Notes under the pieces: generated by a model | Told to the model about the DNA's origin: nothing | Databases searched by the model: none | The model's input: only the letters and a program-made list of their open reading frames with translations | Part shown: positions 11,396 to 47,668 of the stretch, piece after piece | Position numbering within the stretch: the first letter of the stretch is position 1 | Layout of the letters: every line of letters begins with the position of its first letter | Made by a program: the position numbers and the translations under genes | Origin: Bacilli bacterium | GTDB lineage: Bacteria > Bacillota_I > Bacilli_A > ML615J-28 > CAG-698 | Length of the DNA stretch: 64,000 nucleotides | Direction of reading: 5' to 3' | NCBI GenBank assembly: GCA_031553555.1 | Contig: JAVBLL010000008.1 | Location: 149,202 to 213,201, forward strand

Positions 11396-14332
11396 TTATG
11401 ATAATGCTGCAAATTTAGCCTCTGCTTTTAATAAAATATTATAATTATATACAATAATCTTTGTATTACTATCAAGAGCACCATATGCTGCTCTTGCAGC
11501 AAGTATTTCTATCTCATCAGCTGATGTAATCTCTTTATCCAATATACTAATTAAATAAATCGCATTCTCTGCTGCTGAATAATCTAGATTTTCCAGTGCC
11601 TCTTGGTAATCTTCTATAGTTGCATATAGACTACCTATTGTATATCCTGCATCTTTCTTTACTGCAGATGCTTCAATTCCATCTAAGTAATTATTAGTTG
11701 GAGTAGCAAACGATGCAGTAGCATAAGAATAGAAATGATACAATGTAGGTGCATTATTAGTACGGAAATTTGTCATTGAATTATAAACTATAGTGATAAT
11801 AAAATTATTAAAATCAGCTGTTTTTTCTGGATCGATATAAATACCATTTAATGCCTTATTTATTTTATTAAACATCATTGTTATTGATGTTTTAGCAGTT
11901 GCCGGAACCTCACCACCTGCATAATATCCATAAATCGCATAAGCCGCATTAACTACATCATCCATTGTATTATAACGTATATCCATAGCGACTTCTTCAA
12001 AACGAGTTATATGTAAACCACGATAACCTGCCTTTACAATAGTATTATTATTAAAGCTAAAAATGCCGCTTAAACCGCCCTTTACATTTCCACCAGCATC
12101 GCCAGTTATCAAAATGTCACGAGCAAAATCCTCAAAATAATTAGTGTCAATTACTAGATTTTTCACTGTCATTAAATAGATTGCTCTAACACTACTTGAG
12201 CCTTTGATACTATAGAATCTATTACGATCAATATAAATATTTTCTCCATATGTATCATTAGTAGAAATATGAAAAAATGATAAATCAGAACTGTATGATA
12301 TTGAATAAACATTATTATGACTGAAATAAATATTTTTCACAGTCATACTACCTTTATTATAAACTCTAGATGTACCAGTAAAGGCTAAGCCATTTAGCGT
12401 GATATAATCAGCTGCAAGTTCAACTAAACCAGTAATTATTGCCTCATCTTTTCTTGCACTATTTCCTGTTATATTATAGTTTGGTCCATAAATCTTAACT
12501 GATTTATCTATAACAATTTTTTCTGTATACGTTCCAGGAGTAAGGGTAATTGTACTATGAGCAGCAACAATACTGATTGCTTCTGTAACTGTACTAAACA
12601 TATTAACGCCATAAATATAAGCTCTGCCATCTACTGTCACAATAGTACCAATAGTTGATTTTTCAGCTCTCACATCGACGAATTGATAAGTAAATGCACT
12701 TTCAACAATTACCGTTACTTCATCAACAAATGATGAATCAACTGTTGATATAATCGAGATTTTTGTTTCTCCTGCAGATACTCCTGTGATTTTTCCATTT
12801 TGATCAACTGTTGCAACACCAGTATTGCTAGACGACCAAGTAAATCCAGTTATGGCCGTTTTTGGCAATGCTTCTGCTTGCATTTCAAAACTGTTTGTCT
12901 CCCCAATTAGCATATATAATGGAGCCGAAGTTATTTTAACTCCCGATAGAATAATACTAAGAGATGCTTCAGCAGCTGTTAATGTTGCATAATTTGTCAC
13001 AAGACTTTGCAATGAACTAGGTAATGCATCGTAGGCAGTTCTTGCAGCAACAACTTTATCTTCATCTGCTGGTAAAACAGTTGCTGGTATTGCCTTAATT
13101 AAATTAATTGCATTATTAACTGCTGTTGTTTTTGCAGTTGCAAGGGCTTCTTCTGCACTTGTTAAAGTTGCATAATTTGTCACAAGACTTTGCAAACCAG
13201 ATGCTAGTGCGTCATACGCTGTTCTTGCAGCAACAATTGCCGCCTCACTTGATAAATCAATCGTAGCAGGTATTGCCTTAATTGCATTGATAGCCTTATT
13301 TGCTGCCGTTTGTTTTAATTCAGCAAGCGTTTCTTCAGCACCAACTAATTTATTATAATTAGTAACTAATACTTTTGTAGTTGCTGATAATGCATTATAT
13401 GCTGCTCTTGCTTCAATAATTTTTTCTTCACTTGTTAAAGTAACCGATGATCCTATTTCATCAATTTTACCTTTTACTGCATTTGCAGCCGCAGTTTGCA
13501 AAACGCCTAACGCAGTTATAGCTTCTTCTAAATCATCAGCATTTGTAACTTGTGATTGTAACGAAGTAGGTAGTGCATCATATGCAACTTTTGCTGCTAA
13601 AACATCCTCTTCATCAGAAAGGGCAATAGTCGCAGGTAGACCAGAAATTAAGCCACTCACTTCGTTAATTGCCGCCGTTTGTAAAGCAGTTAAAGCAGTT
13701 TCAGCACTCGTTAAAGTAGCATAGTTAGATACTAATGCCTTTGATTCAGTAGATAATGCATCATACGCCGCTCTTGCCGTTCCAATTGCTGTTTCACTTT
13801 CAAGATTAACAGTCGCTGGAATTGCAGCTATTAAAGCCTTAACATCATTAGCTGTATTTTGTTGTAGAGTTTTTAGAGCTGTTTCAGCACTCGTTAAAGT
13901 AGCATAATTAGTAACCAGTGTTTTTTGATCACTTGTTAATGCATTATATGCCGTTTTCGCCTCATCTATTGCACTTTTATCCGATAACTTTATTACCGCT
14001 GGTAAAGCAGTAATTTTATTAACAACTGCCGTAGCTTTAACTAAATTATCCGCTGCTGTTTTCAAGTTTTGAATATCACCTAATTTTTGTTCCAGAACAT
14101 CAAAACTCTTCACATATTCCTTTTGCTTGTCTGTTAATGCATCATATCCCTCTTTTGCACTATTTACTGCTGCTTCATCAGTTAAAGCAACAACTTCAGG
14201 TAACAAAGCAATTTTATCATCAATTTCTTGAGCAGCCTTTTTGTCTGTTCCAGTACAAGCAACTAAAAAAAGAGCCAAAAATAATACACAACTATATATG
14301 AATATTTTGGCAATTGATTTTGTCTTCATCAT
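11396..14332 (-). CDS. Large surface lipoprotein: signal peptide/lipobox, ~8 tandem ~60-aa helical repeats, Big_2 Ig-like domain, right-handed parallel beta-helix domain
   Basis: 978 aa. N-terminus MMKTKSIAKIFIYSCVLFLALFLVAC (lipobox LVAC). Repeats of the form LPAT(I/V)xLSDExAIxxAxxAYDALxxxxKxLVTNYATLTSAExAL. A Big_2-like segment (ITGFTWSSSNTGVATVDQNGKITGVSAGET). A beta-helix segment shared with the 20456..22906 protein. Confidence 0.6.
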   Translation of the reverse strand: MMKTKSIAKIFIYSCVLFLALFLVACTGTDKKAAQEIDDKIALLPEVVALTDEAAVNSAKEGYDALTDKQKEYVKSFDVLEQKLGDIQNLKTAADNLVKATAVVNKITALPAVIKLSDKSAIDEAKTAYNALTSDQKTLVTNYATLTSAETALKTLQQNTANDVKALIAAIPATVNLESETAIGTARAAYDALSTESKALVSNYATLTSAETALTALQTAAINEVSGLISGLPATIALSDEEDVLAAKVAYDALPTSLQSQVTNADDLEEAITALGVLQTAAANAVKGKIDEIGSSVTLTSEEKIIEARAAYNALSATTKVLVTNYNKLVGAEETLAELKQTAANKAINAIKAIPATIDLSSEAAIVAARTAYDALASGLQSLVTNYATLTSAEEALATAKTTAVNNAINLIKAIPATVLPADEDKVVAARTAYDALPSSLQSLVTNYATLTAAEASLSIILSGVKITSAPLYMLIGETNSFEMQAEALPKTAITGFTWSSSNTGVATVDQNGKITGVSAGETKISIISTVDSSFVDEVTVIVESAFTYQFVDVRAEKSTIGTIVTVDGRAYIYGVNMFSTVTEAISIVAAHSTITLTPGTYTEKIVIDKSVKIYGPNYNITGNSARKDEAIITGLVELAADYITLNGLAFTGTSRVYNKGSMTVKNIYFSHNNVYSISYSSDLSFFHISTNDTYGENIYIDRNRFYSIKGSSSVRAIYLMTVKNLVIDTNYFEDFARDILITGDAGGNVKGGLSGIFSFNNNTIVKAGYRGLHITRFEEVAMDIRYNTMDDVVNAAYAIYGYYAGGEVPATAKTSITMMFNKINKALNGIYIDPEKTADFNNFIITIVYNSMTNFRTNNAPTLYHFYSYATASFATPTNNYLDGIEASAVKKDAGYTIGSLYATIEDYQEALENLDYSAAENAIYLISILDKEITSADEIEILAARAAYGALDSNTKIIVYNYNILLKAEAKFAALS
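12950..14250 (-). repeat. In-frame tandem coding repeats (~180 nt unit, ~8 copies) inside the lipoprotein gene
   Basis: Near-identical DNA blocks, e.g. gcttcttctgcacttgttaaagttgcataatttgtcacaagactttgcaa at ~12975 and ~13150. Repeated TLTSAE/YDAL peptide motif. Confidence 0.5.
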
Positions 14333-14454: not shown

Positions 14455-15696
14455 TTATTCTGAGAGACCTGCTTTGCTACGATAAAATTCCTTCAACCAA
14501 ATCCCCCATGTTTTTAAATATTCATTGGAAAAGTCATTAATATATGGAGCATCAACTTTTAAAATAGAGCATTCTCTTGGTCCTGTGGAAATATTCCAAG
14601 CAATATAACTAATATTAAGATTATCAAGCAAATCATACCAAGCCTTTCCCGATTCCAAATTTATTGAACCATATCCCTGAGAATTCATCAATGCATGCTC
14701 TGTAACAAAAATTGGAAGTTTATTATTATAAGCAGTCTCCACCATTTTCCTATGTGATTCCTTGTGAGTATCTGCATAGAAATGATAAGTATACATGATA
14801 TTATCAAATTTTATTGGATTTTTAATAACTGAATCCAAATCGCTTGAATAATTCGGGGTGCCTACGATAATTATTGCCTTTGGATTATTATTCCTAATAA
14901 TTGGAATGATTATATTTGCGTATTTTTTAATATCATCCCAAGTGGTTGTACCATTTGGTTCGTTGCAAATTTCATATAATATGTTTTCATTATCCTTGAA
15001 TTTTTTTGAAATATAATTAAAAAAAGACGAAGCTTCATTTATCCAGTTTAATGGATTTTTATCCTTGACTTCTTCAGCGCCGACAATATGCCAATCTACA
15101 ATTGCATACATATCTAAACTGGTAATATCATTAATAGCTTTTACCATCATAGTTTTTAATTCATTTTGATAAATGCCATTATCTTGGCAATATCCGCCCT
15201 TTTGTGATGTGTACATTGCTAATCTAATTGTATTGATTCCAAACTCTGTCTTAACATTGGCAAAAGTATTATAATTAATGAATTGAGGAAAAAAATTAAA
15301 ACCATGGGTTGACAAACCAAACAACTGAACTTTCTGAAGGTTTTTGTCAACTAAATCCGTGCCAATAACTGAGAGATTCCCATATTTCGAAAATCCATCA
15401 TATGCATTAAATACTTTTTCTAAAGCAGCTATTGCATCTTCCAAATAATTAATATTATTTACTAATAATTTTTGCTCACTTGTCAATTCGTTATATGCCA
15501 TAATTGCATCATCTATTGCCGTTTTGTCAGATAATTTTATTACCTTTGGTAATGCATTTATTTTATTAACTACTACTGTATCTCTTGTAAGATTGTCTGG
15601 TGTTAATTTTAAATCTTGAATTCCATCGTGTTTTTGTTGCAAAATATTGTAGTCCATTATATACCCCTTTTGTATATTTATAATAATTTTTTTCAT
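14455..15696 (-). CDS. Glycoside hydrolase family 5 (endoglucanase/mannanase-like) with N-terminal copy of the neighbouring lipoprotein's repeat unit; no signal peptide
   Basis: 413 aa with GH5 hallmarks (YEICNEPNG catalytic acid region, VTEH nucleophile region, (beta/alpha)8 pattern). Residues 20-95 match the ALPxVIKLSDKxAID…YNxLTSxQK repeat of the 11396..14332 product. Confidence 0.6.
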   Translation of the reverse strand: MKKIIINIQKGYIMDYNILQQKHDGIQDLKLTPDNLTRDTVVVNKINALPKVIKLSDKTAIDDAIMAYNELTSEQKLLVNNINYLEDAIAALEKVFNAYDGFSKYGNLSVIGTDLVDKNLQKVQLFGLSTHGFNFFPQFINYNTFANVKTEFGINTIRLAMYTSQKGGYCQDNGIYQNELKTMMVKAINDITSLDMYAIVDWHIVGAEEVKDKNPLNWINEASSFFNYISKKFKDNENILYEICNEPNGTTTWDDIKKYANIIIPIIRNNNPKAIIIVGTPNYSSDLDSVIKNPIKFDNIMYTYHFYADTHKESHRKMVETAYNNKLPIFVTEHALMNSQGYGSINLESGKAWYDLLDNLNISYIAWNISTGPRECSILKVDAPYINDFSNEYLKTWGIWLKEFYRSKAGLSE

Positions 15697-20455: not shown

Positions 20456-22906
20456 ATGAAAATTATAAATAACAAAAATATTCGGATTTTTTTTGTAGCA
20501 TTTATTTTAATTGCTACAACTTTTCTAGTAAAACTCAAAGCTATTGATAATTTCCAAACTTCTAGTGATATCACTATAAAGGGGGCACAAATTAGAACTC
20601 TTGATCCTAATGGCCTAGCTTTTGTTGGTGAAGTTACTAATTCAGAACAGTTTGGAACAAATATCAACTATGGAATTATTTTATCTCGTGGTGAAGTTTT
20701 AGAAACTGATTATGACGATTTTCTTGTAGGTTCTACTATGAATGGCTACTTAACAATCAATGCTTTCGTTGATAGTTTAGATGATGAAAACTTTTTTCGC
20801 ATTACTTTAATTAATATCCCAGAAATATACTATAACCTAAAATTTTCAGCAAGAGCCTATGTTATGCTTAATAATGGAAGTTATATATATAGTTCCCAAA
20901 TTCAAACGCGTTCGTTTTACCAAGTTGCAAAAGCCTTTTTAGATAAAGGAAATGAAAGTGAATTAATCCAAGATATTTGTAAAACAAGAGTTAATTATGC
21001 TTTAAATGGTGGTTCTTGGAATGACACTTCTATTAATAAATACTATGAAGAATTCGCTAATATAACTACTGATTTTTTAAATGATTATAATGAATATGCA
21101 ACTAGTGTTTCAAAACCAATTTATACAAAATCTCAGTTTGGGAGTTTAGACACTACGGGAATTCCAGAATATACTTTGACCGATTTTTTATATAGCTCTA
21201 CATACAAAACAAAATGGATATGGCTTGTAAATTATTTCGCCATTAATGCCAATGCAAATAATATAACTGCTTTTCAAGCATTTAATAATTATACTTCTTC
21301 TACGTCATTAAATGCTGCTAATCAAAATTTTATAAAACAAATAAATTATGAATTTCGAGGCTTTATTAGCGAAAGTCTATATGGCTCTGCTACTCCTTAC
21401 CAATCTGCTGATTACAGTAGCGTGAATCCACAAACGCAAATATTAAATTATAATAATGATAATCAAAAGAGATTATTCACATATGAGAACGCCTTATTAA
21501 ATTTGGACGCACCAAAAAAAGATTATTATAATTTTGTTGGTTGGTATAATAATCCAAGTTTTACTGGTGAAGCTATTACAAATATAGATATTAATCTGGG
21601 AGTAATTCCATTATATGCACAGTATGCTCCTATCAATTATACAATCATTTATGTGACAAATGACGGCGAATTTTCATCTAGTCCTATAACTAATTTTAAT
21701 GTTGAAGATGAAGAAATTATATTACCTACAAATATCTCCTTGGCAAACGCAACATTTCAAGGTTGGTATTTAAATAATAGTTTTAGCGGTGATATAGTTA
21801 CTTCAGTTGCTGCTGGTACAAGTTGCAACCTCACATTATATGCAAAATGGGAGATGGACGCCAAACCTATAAATGTACAATCAAGTGGTGGAGCAAGCAT
21901 CAGCTATAATACTTTCAATGAATTCACTATGGCAAGTGGTGATATAATAACAGTTGCTGCTGGTACGTACAACGAAAATCTAACAATTCCAGCTGCTGCC
22001 ACTAATATTTCTTTATTAGGTCCTAATAAAGATGTACTTGGAACAAGCATTAATAGAACTGATGAAGCTATTTTCACAGGCATAATTACCATAAATGCAA
22101 CTTATTGTACTATTAATGGTATTTCAACTTTTGGTAGTGCTCAAATTAAAACCACTAAGAGTAATACAGTCTTGACTTGTCTAAAAATGATATCTAATAT
22201 AAAAGTAGATATGATATCCGTTGCGGCAACATTAGCAATTTCTAATATTACGATATCTAATTCTTCTATTATTACTACCTCTAATGCTAATGCCATTGTC
22301 ATTACTGGAACAAGTAGCGCAAAAGTGAGTAATATAACAATTACTGATAATTACATCAAAGGATTGATAACTGAGACAACGGATATTGAAACTTGTGCTA
22401 TAAAAGCCAATTATACCAATAATAGCGTTAGCATAATTAACAATAATATTGTTGGTTTTGGAAAGTATCCTATTAATATTAATAATCCAACTACTTCATC
22501 TATTAATATTACCAATAATTCTTTTGTATCTGGGGGTATTATTGGTGGACATATAATTATTATTCAAACTTCTACGACTAATACAGCATGCATAATTTCA
22601 TATAATACTTTTACTACAAGTAAATGTGATAATTCCACAGATACTAGTGATGGTTCAATTATTAATGTAAGAGGAGCTGTAGGTACTGATAAATATTCGA
22701 TTATTTACAACAAATTTATGGATGCAGGATCACTTGCAAAAACAATATATTTAAGTTTTGGTGTTAGTTCAGCATCTAGTGCAGCATTCATAGTTGATTC
22801 TAACTATTTTGCCATTGCTCCAACAACAACAAATGTAAAAACCACACTTGAAATTACAAATACTTATTCGTCATCAAATGATGTACCTACATATAGTCCA
22901 TCTTGA
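20456..22906 (+). CDS. Secreted surface protein with Listeria-Bacteroides (Flg_new) repeats and right-handed parallel beta-helix domain
   Basis: 816 aa. Signal peptide MKIINNKNIRIFFVAFILIATTFLV. Two Flg_new repeats (YNFVGWYNNPSFTGEAI… ATFQGWYLNNSFSGDIVTSVAAGTSCNLTLYAKWE). A beta-helix block (AGTYNENLTI… TDEAIFTGII…) paralogous to that in 11396..14332. Confidence 0.6.
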   Translation: MKIINNKNIRIFFVAFILIATTFLVKLKAIDNFQTSSDITIKGAQIRTLDPNGLAFVGEVTNSEQFGTNINYGIILSRGEVLETDYDDFLVGSTMNGYLTINAFVDSLDDENFFRITLINIPEIYYNLKFSARAYVMLNNGSYIYSSQIQTRSFYQVAKAFLDKGNESELIQDICKTRVNYALNGGSWNDTSINKYYEEFANITTDFLNDYNEYATSVSKPIYTKSQFGSLDTTGIPEYTLTDFLYSSTYKTKWIWLVNYFAINANANNITAFQAFNNYTSSTSLNAANQNFIKQINYEFRGFISESLYGSATPYQSADYSSVNPQTQILNYNNDNQKRLFTYENALLNLDAPKKDYYNFVGWYNNPSFTGEAITNIDINLGVIPLYAQYAPINYTIIYVTNDGEFSSSPITNFNVEDEEIILPTNISLANATFQGWYLNNSFSGDIVTSVAAGTSCNLTLYAKWEMDAKPINVQSSGGASISYNTFNEFTMASGDIITVAAGTYNENLTIPAAATNISLLGPNKDVLGTSINRTDEAIFTGIITINATYCTINGISTFGSAQIKTTKSNTVLTCLKMISNIKVDMISVAATLAISNITISNSSIITTSNANAIVITGTSSAKVSNITITDNYIKGLITETTDIETCAIKANYTNNSVSIINNNIVGFGKYPININNPTTSSINITNNSFVSGGIIGGHIIIIQTSTTNTACIISYNTFTTSKCDNSTDTSDGSIINVRGAVGTDKYSIIYNKFMDAGSLAKTIYLSFGVSSASSAAFIVDSNYFAIAPTTTNVKTTLEITNTYSSSNDVPTYSPS

Positions 22907-23554: not shown

Positions 23555-23672
23555 AGACCTCCATACAGAGATCCGCTATATTAACAGCGGAAGAATAGAA
23601 AAACCGCCACTATGTGTTCGTCCGTATCTTATCCTAAATACAGCACTTAACGCTTTTCCACTATTTCTGTTA
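23555..23672 (-). ncRNA. Tetrahydrofolate (THF-I) riboswitch-like 5' leader
   Basis: Minus-strand leader AGAAAUAGUGGAAAAGCGUUAAGUGCUG…UAGGAUAAGAUACGGACGAACACAUAGUGGCGG…CCGCUG. It contains the conserved GCGUUAAGUG, GGAU, ACGAA/GGCGG and 3' CCGC(U) pseudoknot-partner segments of the THF aptamer. Followed by the GGAGG RBS. Confidence 0.55.
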
Positions 23673-46691: not shown

Positions 46692-47393
46692 TTAATTTGC
46701 AAATATTTTAATAGATTTTATAGTCAAAGATTGAAATTGATAACGATTATCTCCATCATCAAAATCTAAATTTTCTTTTGAAACAAACATAATGCTGAAA
46801 ACTAATTCATGTGTACTGCCAGATGGCAAAACCAAATCACTTAAAAACGCTTCATTAAGTTCATAGTATTCTTCAACTTCACTTTCAACATCATCAATTT
46901 TACTACTGATCACATGAATCTCCATTGTTTCTTCAATTGGATACTCAGGAACATAATTACCATCATCATCTATGTAATAATATCCTGGAATGTATTGGAT
47001 GCCATCAAACCTATTTACGTACAAATAATCATCTTCTATTCCGTCATATACCATATTAGAGTAATATTCAGTCAAACTCATTTTCAATTTATATGCCATA
47101 TCGCTTTTTGAGGTAGTGATTAATTTAAATAAATATTCTTGCTCTGGAACAATATATTGTAGTTTAATATCTTTTGTAACTGCTGACCAGTCATTTATAT
47201 CATTATCCCATGAATATAGTGCGCACTGTATACTTTTCTTTTCTAAATCTTCCGTATCAATAGGAATACCATTTATTTTTGCTTTTTCATATATCGTTAT
47301 CCAAGCAAATGTCAACATTAAAAACATCAATAACGCAAAAACAACTGAAAATATTGATAAAATAAATTTTTGATTAATTTTCTTTTTAGTCAT
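46692..47393 (-). CDS. Membrane-anchored/secreted protein with SipW-cognate-like N-terminus (first gene of operon 1), function unknown
   Basis: Start MTKKKINQKFILSIFSVVFALLMFLMLTFAWITIY (the 5' extension in the ORF track overlaps the leader RNA). GGAGGG RBS. Acidic, Tyr-rich soluble part. Confidence 0.4.
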   Translation of the reverse strand: MTKKKINQKFILSIFSVVFALLMFLMLTFAWITIYEKAKINGIPIDTEDLEKKSIQCALYSWDNDINDWSAVTKDIKLQYIVPEQEYLFKLITTSKSDMAYKLKMSLTEYYSNMVYDGIEDDYLYVNRFDGIQYIPGYYYIDDDGNYVPEYPIEETMEIHVISSKIDDVESEVEEYYELNEAFLSDLVLPSGSTHELVFSIMFVSKENLDFDDGDNRYQFQSLTIKSIKIFAN

Positions 47394-47404
47394 ATTCCCT
47401 CCAT

Positions 47405-47498
47405 AAAAAAAATGCCAGTACACATAATTCCTATGCAACTGGCTATCTATTTCAGACCCTTTAGTTTTGCGTCATCGCCTTTCGACGATTTTGCCTCT
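47405..47498 (-). ncRNA. c-di-GMP-I (GEMM)-like riboswitch element, copy 1, with intrinsic terminator abutting the RBS
   Basis: Minus-strand RNA: AGAGGCAAAAUCGUCGAAAGGCGAUGACGCAAAACUAAAGGGUCUGAAAUAGAUAGCCAGUUGCAUAGGAAUUAUGUGUACUGGCAUUUUUUUU. GGCAAA–hairpin with GAAA tetraloop–GACGCAAA(G/A)C core as in the Vc2 GEMM aptamer (GGCAAACCAUUCGAAAGAGUGGGACGCAAAGCC), and a UAG(A/G)UAGC 3' segment. The terminator hairpin GCCAGU…ACUGGC plus U8 lies directly before the GGAGGG RBS. Confidence 0.5.
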
Positions 47499-47522
47499 AT
47501 TTTAATATTCACTTTTATTAAT

Positions 47523-47613
47523 AAAAAAAGCCAGCACACATAATTATATGCAACTGGCTATCTATTTCAGACCCTTTAGTTTTGCGTCATCGCCTTTCGA
47601 CGATTTTGCCTTT
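47523..47613 (-). ncRNA. c-di-GMP-I (GEMM)-like riboswitch element, copy 2 (tandem, upstream of copy 1)
   Basis: Identical to copy 1 over the ~60 nt of the aptamer core; ~95% identical over the whole element. Differences are confined to the terminator loop and closing pair (A→G giving G·U). Confidence 0.5.
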
Positions 47614-47639
47614 ATTCTAATATTCATTTTATTACTATT

Positions 47640-47668
47640 ATTATATCACCTTTTACAAAAAATGTCAA
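47640..47668 (-). promoter_or_regulatory. Sigma-A promoter of operon 1 (TTGACA-17-TATAAT)
   Basis: Minus-strand read CTTGACATTTTTTGTAAAAGGTGATATAATAATAG, ~25 nt upstream of riboswitch copy 2. Homologous to the operon-2 promoter. Confidence 0.4.

Follow-up and report, generated by a model that had tools for sequence, protein, structure and literature searches.

In the window analysed here (64,000 nucleotides of an uncultured Bacilli bacterium, contig JAVBLL010000008.1 of assembly GCA_031553555.1), two neighbouring operons are encoded on the minus strand, and closely similar RNA elements stand in their leaders, two in tandem in front of operon 1 and a single copy in front of operon 2. This arrangement raises a key question: what do these elements sense, in which direction do they act on the genes behind them, and what could the second copy in front of operon 1 add? 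The answer that we consider very probable, judging from the sequence and from simple calculation, is that the leader of operon 1 contains two independent ON riboswitches for cyclic di-guanosine monophosphate (c-di-GMP) of class I arranged in series and the leader of operon 2 contains one, with both operons ON at high c-di-GMP.

The window was searched with the Rfam covariance models at their curated gathering thresholds (35 bits for RF01051, the c-di-GMP-I or GEMM-I family). Three c-di-GMP-I aptamers were revealed, all on the minus strand, each of which spans the full model (positions 1–87 of 87) with E-values from 1e-8 to 4e-10 for the 64-kb window:

47620–47546, minus strand: c-di-GMP-I aptamer copy 2, promoter-proximal in the operon 1 leader (RF01051, 63.8 bits, E-value 3.7e-10)
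47505–47431, minus strand: c-di-GMP-I aptamer copy 1, proximal to the ribosome-binding site (RBS) in the same leader (RF01051, 61.5 bits)
54426–54352, minus strand: c-di-GMP-I aptamer copy 3, with a GUAA tetraloop, in the operon 2 leader (RF01051, 57.0 bits)

The matches lie exactly where a preliminary description of this DNA had placed a tandem riboswitch before operon 1 and a single copy before operon 2; its reading of the elements as riboswitches was right, while neither the ligand nor the ON direction had been named in it. Copies 1 and 2 are identical at 72 of 75 positions, and copy 3 agrees with either of them at 60 of 75. In all three, a P2 hairpin with a GNRA tetraloop is flanked by GC...GACGC; it reads AUCGUC-GAAA-GGCGAU in copies 1 and 2 and AUCGUU-GUAA-GGCGAU in copy 3, where the C-to-U change is still G-U paired. 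The basal P3 pairs are AACU/AGUU, GG/CC and GUC with GAU or GAC, and both partners of the inter-helix pair (C in GAC, G in the AG bulge) are there. According to the published equivalence of positions G11, A38 and C81 with G20, A47 and C92 of Vc2 (PMC11218506; also PMC4744006), the ligand-contact bases are found in every copy: G at model position 11, an A that follows GACGC immediately, and a C behind the P3 3' strand (GC-A). Since the base after GACGC is the canonical A and the specificity position, equivalent to G20, is occupied by G, the three elements are filed as canonical c-di-GMP-I aptamers and are predicted to bind c-di-GMP.

How could such aptamers act on the genes downstream? Directly after each of them stands an intrinsic terminator of its own, consisting of a hairpin and a U tract:

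47558–47523, minus strand: terminator 2, hairpin 47558–47530 (GCCAGUUGCAUAUAAUUAUGUGUGCUGGC), −13.0 kcal/mol, U7 at 47529–47523
47443–47405, minus strand: terminator 1, hairpin 47443–47414, −12.5 kcal/mol, A + U8 at 47413–47405
54364–54323, minus strand: terminator 3, hairpin 54364–54334, −16.3 kcal/mol, tail UUAU8 (UUAUUUUUUUU)

Terminator 2, which the terminator scan missed owing to a bulge, was located by minimum free energy (MFE) folding, and its 5' arm covers the last 13 nt of aptamer 2. The 5' arm of every terminator (GCCAGUUGCAU) is made up of the 3' strand of P3 (6–7 nt shared), the C92 equivalent and the 3' strand of P1; it thus belongs to the aptamer, and aptamer and terminator are therefore mutually exclusive. 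The unconstrained MFE structure is the terminator state, and the state with the aptamer enforced is 4.4–11.3 kcal/mol less stable, so that the energy of the ligand would be needed to hold the ON state. When the hairpins were tabulated sequence by sequence, the terminator stem of copy 3 proved to be preserved relative to copies 1 and 2 despite changes on both arms; the pairing register of the arms is not the same in copy 2 as in copy 3, and relatives differ in stem length. Neither the aptamer nor the terminator structures include the RBS, and no separate anti-terminator is present. The elements are thus predicted to be transcriptional ON switches in which c-di-GMP blocks termination. The nascent RNA of each unit would fold the aptamer first; with c-di-GMP bound, the aptamer would retain the segment CCAGUUGCAU, comprising the P3 3' strand, the C that pairs with the ligand and the P1 strand, no terminator would form and RNA polymerase would continue, and with no ligand the same segment would instead pair with the downstream arm (AUGUGUnCUGGC) and transcription would stop at the U tract. 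Published examples of such a mutually exclusive design are Bc4 of B. thuringiensis (PMC4759541) and the pilM ON switch (PMC9262584).

Another important question is whether the two units of the operon 1 leader are both complete and both placed between promoter and gene. The following features delimit the two leaders:

47668–47640, minus strand: operon 1 promoter, −35 TTGACA at 47668–47663, 17-nt spacer, extended −10 TGaTATAAT at 47648–47640 (12/12 consensus positions)
47402–47391, minus strand: operon 1 translation start in the leader sequence, Shine–Dalgarno (SD) sequence GGAGGG at 47402–47397 and ATG at 47393–47391
54470–54442, minus strand: operon 2 promoter, TTGACT, 17-nt spacer, TGtTATAAT (11/12)
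47771–47669, minus strand: spacer from the operon 2 stop to the operon 1 promoter, A+U-rich, fold z-score −1.1

The two leader promoters are the best two sigma-70 matches in a region of 9 kb, and transcription of operon 1 is predicted to start near 47633. Between its promoter and its ATG, two complete aptamers are found on one strand, each with its own expression platform, which constitutes a homotypic multiple-platform tandem. The spacings reported earlier were recovered as well: the 24 nt between the units correspond to the distance between 47530, where the terminator 2 stem ends, and 47505, where aptamer 1 starts, and are made up of the U7 tract plus 17 nt; the RBS directly follows copy 1 (U8 at 47412–47405, then the SD sequence and the start codon); and the ~55 nt from copy 3 to the RBS are 53 nt if counted past the U tract, or 64 nt from the end of the terminator stem (54334) to AGGAGG (54269–54264). 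Two start codons proposed by the open reading frame (ORF) tool were rejected: the TTG at 47438, offered as the first start of operon 1, lies inside the terminator and is not a likely start, and for operon 2 the real start is the ATG at 54258 and not that at 54282.

The two tandem units repeat directly with a period of 115 nt, over 84 nt at 96% identity and 23 nt at 91%, and the aptamer core is identical over 62 nt. The differences between units 1 and 2, which involve several positions including a 1-nt indel, lie in loops or flanks or change a U-G pair to U-A, and both copies retain an intact aptamer, terminator stem and U tract. Could the repeat be an artefact of the assembly? Apart from these differences, the Logan assemblies of two separate runs from the source community (SRR23967709 and SRR23967707; loci L001 and L002) both end at window position 47461, inside aptamer copy 1, where the sequence common to both copies, beginning at 47432, has run for 30 nt. 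This is the point at which a 31-mer graph would branch, and the breaks therefore provide independent support for a real repeat; together with the unit differences, they rule out an artefact. Judged from the sequence, the 115-nt aptamer-plus-terminator unit has clearly been duplicated recently.

If both units work, the operon 1 leader (minus strand, ~47633–47394) would act as two complete and independent ON riboswitches in series and the operon 2 leader as one. The polymerase would have to clear both gates, so that read-through into operon 1 would be the product of two probabilities and the basal leak would be squared. In a simple binding model with two identical ON gates in series, the 10–90% span narrows from ~81-fold to ~40-fold; by this calculation, the tandem should have a lower leak and a steeper response than a single unit. 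The preliminary description had likewise expected two terminator-bearing aptamers in series to respond more digitally, and such behaviour has been published for the c-di-GMP-I class (PMC4759541, PMC9481103): with one, two and three units, basal read-through was 74%, 25% and 8.4%, with rising induction (PMC4759541). A survey recorded 347 doublets and 12 triplets of c-di-GMP-I riboswitches, more than for any other class (PMC9481103), and the enrichment of such tandems is statistically significant (PMC12452182). A tandem of c-di-GMP-I riboswitches before an operon is accordingly a well-documented arrangement, of which this locus is one more instance.

Was the promoter duplicated together with the riboswitch, as had been claimed earlier? 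The promoter strings quoted in support of this claim are present apart from one slip (copy 2 reads AAAATGTCAAGTTT); the claim itself did not hold up, since the two promoter regions, once their hexamers are masked, score the same in local alignment as shuffled sequences (P = 0.69). Identity is 9/17 in the spacers (P ~0.05) and 17/40 upstream (P = 0.13), and the features in common amount to the consensus elements plus TG in the extended −10 and a handful of adjoining A/T bases. Promoters close to the consensus (TTGACA-17-TAtAAT type) also stand immediately upstream of the aptamer in homologous leaders from other metagenomes (L125, L127), and the similarity is therefore of the kind seen between any two strong promoters. 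Co-duplication of the promoter with the module is possible, without being demonstrable from these sequences.

One further promoter-like match was considered and rejected. It is a weak one (CTGAAA-16-TATAAT, 10/12) at 47570–47543 on the minus strand that falls within unit 2, its −10 coinciding with the terminator loop, and unit 1 does not have it (CATAGGAAT). Such matches occur at chance level, 73 being found and 72.9 expected in A+T-rich DNA. If active, this promoter would bypass the first gate.

Transcription may also arrive from upstream. The spacer that extends from the operon 2 stop (47772) to the promoter of operon 1 contains no G+C hairpin followed by a U tract and folds no better than shuffled sequences; this agrees with the earlier remark that no terminator separates the end of operon 2 from leader 1 and that transcripts reading through would face these two gates as well. 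Such transcription from operon 2 into leader 1 is thus plausible, and Rho-dependent termination in the spacer would be possible too. Together, the gates would produce a graded hierarchy, in which operon 2 is predicted to be subject to one gate, operon 1 with its 2884-aa protein to two, and read-through transcripts from operon 2 to three.

Several observations weigh against this model of independent c-di-GMP ON switches and have to be set beside its rivals. The P3 helix is short, with a 7-nt distal loop and 2–3 nt where the Rfam consensus has 14–15, so that the tetraloop receptor may or may not be intact; the short form is common among relatives (matches of 74–76 nt, among the loci listed). The P1 helix is A/U-rich and weak, with non-canonical pairs flagged. 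In the MFE structure of the full leader, terminator 2 contributes its 5' arm and terminator 1 its 3' arm to a shared helix, and such cross-unit misfolding could complicate the independent action of the units. No GGDEF or EAL gene is found in the window, so that c-di-GMP metabolism is only presumed for the organism. As for the ligand, a specificity variant, either of the GEMM-Ib type that senses cyclic AMP-GMP (c-AMP-GMP, c-GAMP) or of the c-di-GMP-I-GGC type, would respond to something other than c-di-GMP. The c-di-GMP-I-GGC model (RF03167, cut-off 59 bits), run in E-value mode, comes close with 58.9, 57.7 and 55.3 bits, all just below the cut-off, and displaces RF01051 in clan competition by E-value (47430–47619 and 54351–54425). 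Its consensus has a G after GACGC, where all three copies have A, and membership fails on this base; moreover, the change of G20 to A that shifts specificity to c-AMP-GMP (PMC9481103) is seen in none of the three, and bit scores are higher on RF01051, the sole family whose curated cut-off is passed. A variant ligand is thus very unlikely. Automated annotation could mislabel the three aptamers as c-di-GMP-I-GGC.

The direction of switching and the purpose of the doublet can be questioned in the same way. Some c-di-GMP-I riboswitches are OFF switches, e.g., Cd1 of C. difficile (PMC9262584), and were the present elements OFF switches, or were they to act on translation, c-di-GMP would lower expression of the operons; the sharing of a strand that makes the bound aptamer and the terminator exclusive, the lack of a separate anti-terminator, the position of the RBS outside both structures and the surface- or matrix-type character of the regulated proteins, which are normally induced by c-di-GMP, make this extremely improbable, and we infer an ON direction in vivo. 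Less far-fetched, and still unlikely, is a doublet with no regulatory purpose, in which a recent near-neutral duplication of 115 nt or a gene-conversion event left two copies, one of which does essentially all the work. The 96% identity of the units and their identical 62-nt core would fit such an origin, and with no close relative of the genome and no orthologous locus found in which conservation could be followed (the product of the first gene has no partner in 5.8 billion protein clusters), selection for the doublet is not demonstrable, and the duplication may be recent and near-neutral. Against this stand the retention of aptamer, terminator stem and U tract in both copies, the confinement of the differences to loops, flanks or a U-G to U-A change, the independent recurrence of doublets and triplets in other genomes with statistically significant enrichment (PMC12452182), and the fact that any functional second terminator necessarily multiplies read-through. 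Two ON switches in series in front of operon 1 and one in front of operon 2 hence remain the reading that we prefer.

Are similar leaders found elsewhere? An aptamer-pattern scan of genome contigs yielded at least 120 loci from many phyla, and the comparisons given here cover the matches listed. Triplets (L025, L030) and doublets (L094, L117, L075, L004) are Rfam-confirmed among them, and neighbouring single-riboswitch operons, as in the window, occur at two loci (L041, L082). The terminator design, GCCAGUUGC...CUGGC followed by a U tract, is kept in L017, L022, L082, L111, L127 and many more, with different inner stems and loops. In a crude survey of the 134 related aptamers listed, the terminator overlapped the P3 strand in 40, was separate in 30 and was not detectable in 30, the remaining 34 being unparsed. 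One doublet, in an uncultured Bacillales metagenome-assembled genome (MAG; L094), has its two c-di-GMP-I aptamers only 7 nt apart (1826–1901 and 1908–1989); this spacing leaves the first aptamer no room for a terminator, and the tandem is therefore of a type different from that of the window. They stand before an ORF of more than 1987 aa, beginning at 2038 of the same locus, which aligns over 672 aa at 22% identity with the protein encoded first in operon 2.

What, then, is regulated? The two operons and the end of operon 1 are as follows:

47393–34062, minus strand: operon 1, four genes encoding proteins of 233 aa (47393–46692), 2884 aa with leucine-rich repeats (LRRs; 46673–38019), 1084 aa (38007–34753) and 228 aa (34748–34062)
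54269–47772, minus strand: operon 2, SD sequence AGGAGG at 54269–54264, then three genes encoding proteins of 1003 aa (54258–51247), 883 aa with LRRs (51250–48599) and 272 aa (48590–47772)
34047–34001, minus strand: operon 1 end terminator, 13-bp stem AGCUCUAUAAUCU / AGAUUAUAGAGCU followed by UUUU (hairpin 34047–34005)

The genes of operon 1 are separated by gaps of 18, 11 and 4 nt, and its end terminator was read from the sequence, the scan having missed it owing to the 17-nt loop. Comparison of the seven proteins with Pfam and NCBIfam identified only the LRRs, in the large ones; they are otherwise unannotated. The N-terminus of all seven comprises a K-rich segment, a hydrophobic helix and the motif T/V-Y/F-A/G-Y/W-F/I/M, which we take to resemble the SipW-cleaved signal of TasA and CalY. 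TasA itself has an aromatic residue at P2' and needs SipW (PMC10269814). Among the window proteins, no match to Pfam Peptidase_M73 or to the NCBIfam SipW-type signal was found, and a motif search of the window gave no SipW-type S26 signal peptidase; N-terminal matches to Peptidase_M73 below the threshold (E ~0.04) were seen in three of seven relatives from other genomes.

The same signal is widespread behind related riboswitches. In its strict form the motif heads the first ORF after 22 of the 114 related riboswitches listed, and after more of them if I/V is allowed at the second position; loci with such a signal downstream of a c-di-GMP-I riboswitch are L004, L009, L011, L014, L017, L022, L029, L035, L082, L111, L113 and L125–L128. 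The lineages concerned are MAGs labelled Acholeplasmataceae, Mollicutes, Bacilli and others, mostly uncultured Bacillota. In L125 and L126, a homologue of the 272-aa protein lies ~50 nt downstream of a c-di-GMP-I aptamer, and in L127 and L128, such a homologue is followed by a Peptidase_S26 gene and then by another aptamer.

In a word-indexed search of 5.8 billion protein clusters, the 233-aa and 272-aa proteins matched only themselves, and a 15-sequence profile added only two matches to the protein search. An exhaustive HMMER search revealed 28 full-length homologues of the 272-aa protein; the profile of these homologues also matches the 228-aa, 233-aa and 1003-aa proteins of the window and 27 riboswitch-associated ORFs of other genomes, and a comparison of the family profile with PDB sequences found nothing. 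A first AlphaFold model of the 272-aa protein, built on a 5-sequence alignment, had a predicted local distance difference test score (pLDDT) of 48 and meaningless Foldseek matches and was discarded. The model built on the homologue alignment reaches a pLDDT of 79.8, and a comparison with 350,542 PDB chains ranks the TasA fibre 8aur_A first (E-value 2.7e-4, probability 0.98), with a TM-score of only 0.28–0.31. Three weak and independent lines offer a lead that the operon proteins may be TasA-like, SipW-dependent fibre or adhesin proteins.

At high c-di-GMP, the cell would thus be expected to express proteins that carry TasA-like signals and are secreted or placed on the surface, giant LRR proteins among them. 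c-di-GMP usually promotes the sessile, adhesive state, and the predicted output fits this state. Beyond that, we tentatively raise the possibility that the riboswitches mark an undescribed c-di-GMP-induced surface system: a fast-evolving secreted family with a TasA/SipW-type signal and a TasA-like beta-sandwich, expanded to giant LRR proteins of up to 2884 aa, whose members follow c-di-GMP-I ON riboswitches in many uncultured Bacillota and might assemble in the manner of TasA into fibres displaying LRR adhesins. If this is true, c-di-GMP would be linked to TasA-type matrix fibres via RNA and not via SinR-type repressors.

The surroundings of the operons indicate the kind of host. The riboswitch operons (~20 kb; 33872–55152) are flanked by hrcA-grpE-dnaK-dnaJ on one side and by genes for a metallo-beta-lactamase (MBL)-fold hydrolase, ylmC/ymxH and yqeK/rsfS-yqeH-yqeG on the other. 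The two operons match their flanks in G+C content (28.8% for the window) and are therefore not obviously a recent import. The flanking genes (hrcA-grpE-dnaK-dnaJ, the yqeG-yqeH-yqeK/rsfS cluster, ylmC/ymxH, spoVB and relA) indicate, from their predicted identities, a spore-forming member of the Bacillota, which is represented solely by an assembly derived from a metagenome. After the operon 1 terminator, a perfect hrcA promoter (TTGACA-17-TATAAT, 33922–33894) is overlapped by an inverted repeat resembling CIRCE (the controlling inverted repeat of chaperone expression), TTAGCACT-N11-AGTGCTAA (33936–33910).

Elsewhere in the window, a tetrahydrofolate (THF) riboswitch (RF01831, 44.7 bits, cut-off 36) at 23583–23671 on the minus strand lies directly upstream of a gene for an energy-coupling factor (ECF) transporter S component (23548–22991), which is the expected arrangement for a folate transporter. 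Other large putative surface or secreted proteins are encoded without a riboswitch at 11396–14332, 14455–15696 and 20456–22906; they are a 978-aa protein with a Big_2 domain and a weak NosD-family match, a cellulase of glycoside hydrolase family 5 (GH5), and an 816-aa protein with Listeria-Bacteroides repeats.

What do these results add? The riboswitch finding by itself adds little, since no other class is known to form homotypic tandems in such numbers as c-di-GMP-I riboswitches, whose digital behaviour in tandem has already been measured. Its value is in annotation, where two unannotated operons of an uncultured, spore-forming member of the Bacillota with 29% G+C can now be labelled as predicted to be c-di-GMP-induced. 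The uncharacterised protein family under this control is of moderate interest and the RNA of low interest; should the regulated proteins be TasA-like fibre or adhesin components, the riboswitch would become a handy genomic marker for the family across uncultured gut and rumen Bacillota.

Among known systems, the SipW-dependent fibre proteins TasA and CalY of B. subtilis and B. cereus have a signal ending in T-[FYW]-A, an aromatic residue and F, like the operon proteins, whose homologues elsewhere adjoin a Peptidase_S26 gene and whose AlphaFold model has the TasA fibre 8aur as its best PDB match. In contrast to TasA, the operon proteins show no significant sequence similarity to it, a TM-score of ~0.3 and no signal peptidase gene in the window; they include several giant LRR proteins, and control would be exerted by a c-di-GMP riboswitch, whereas SinR/SlrR serve this function for TasA.

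Among RNA systems, the glycine riboswitch, to which the preliminary description had likened the tandem, also has two adjacent homologous aptamers in one leader. The likeness is loose, since its aptamers share one platform, interact physically and bind cooperatively, whereas in the window there are two independent switches, each with its own terminator and with no inter-aptamer contact implied. The pilM c-GAMP ON riboswitch (GEMM-Ib) of Geobacter (PMC9262584) has a homologous fold and a terminator that sequesters the ligand-pairing C, as in the window, and its short decision window and intrinsically leaky or incomplete ON state are counted as further likenesses; it differs in its specificity base (A, with G in the window), in being a single unit and in its Gram-negative host.

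A close counterpart is the triple tandem Bc3-Bc4-Bc5 before cspABCDE of Bacillus thuringiensis CT-43 (Zhou et al. 2016, PMC4759541), which belongs to the same aptamer class. There, as in leader 1 of the window, several complete and highly similar units stand in one 5' untranslated region, each with its own intrinsic terminator, an arm of which overlaps the ligand-pairing C, P1 and part of P3 and makes the unit an ON switch. An operon for cell-surface proteins follows, and the series action was measured to lower the leak and sharpen the response, an effect that for the window is predicted by the simple binding model. The window has two units, not three, a period of 115 nt and a short P3; its regulated proteins have no relationship to those of B. 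thuringiensis (they carry a TasA-like signal and LRRs, and neither Pfam nor NCBIfam detects a cell-wall-anchor domain in them), and the host is an uncultured member of the Bacillota with 29% G+C. Finally, the homotypic pseudo-cooperative tandems (Sherlock and Breaker 2022, PMC9481103), including the tandem thiamine pyrophosphate (TPP) riboswitch of B. anthracis, consist, like the predicted tandem of the window, of independent switches of the same class in series, with their own platforms, one ligand and a predicted digital response, and from these the operon 1 leader does not differ in principle.

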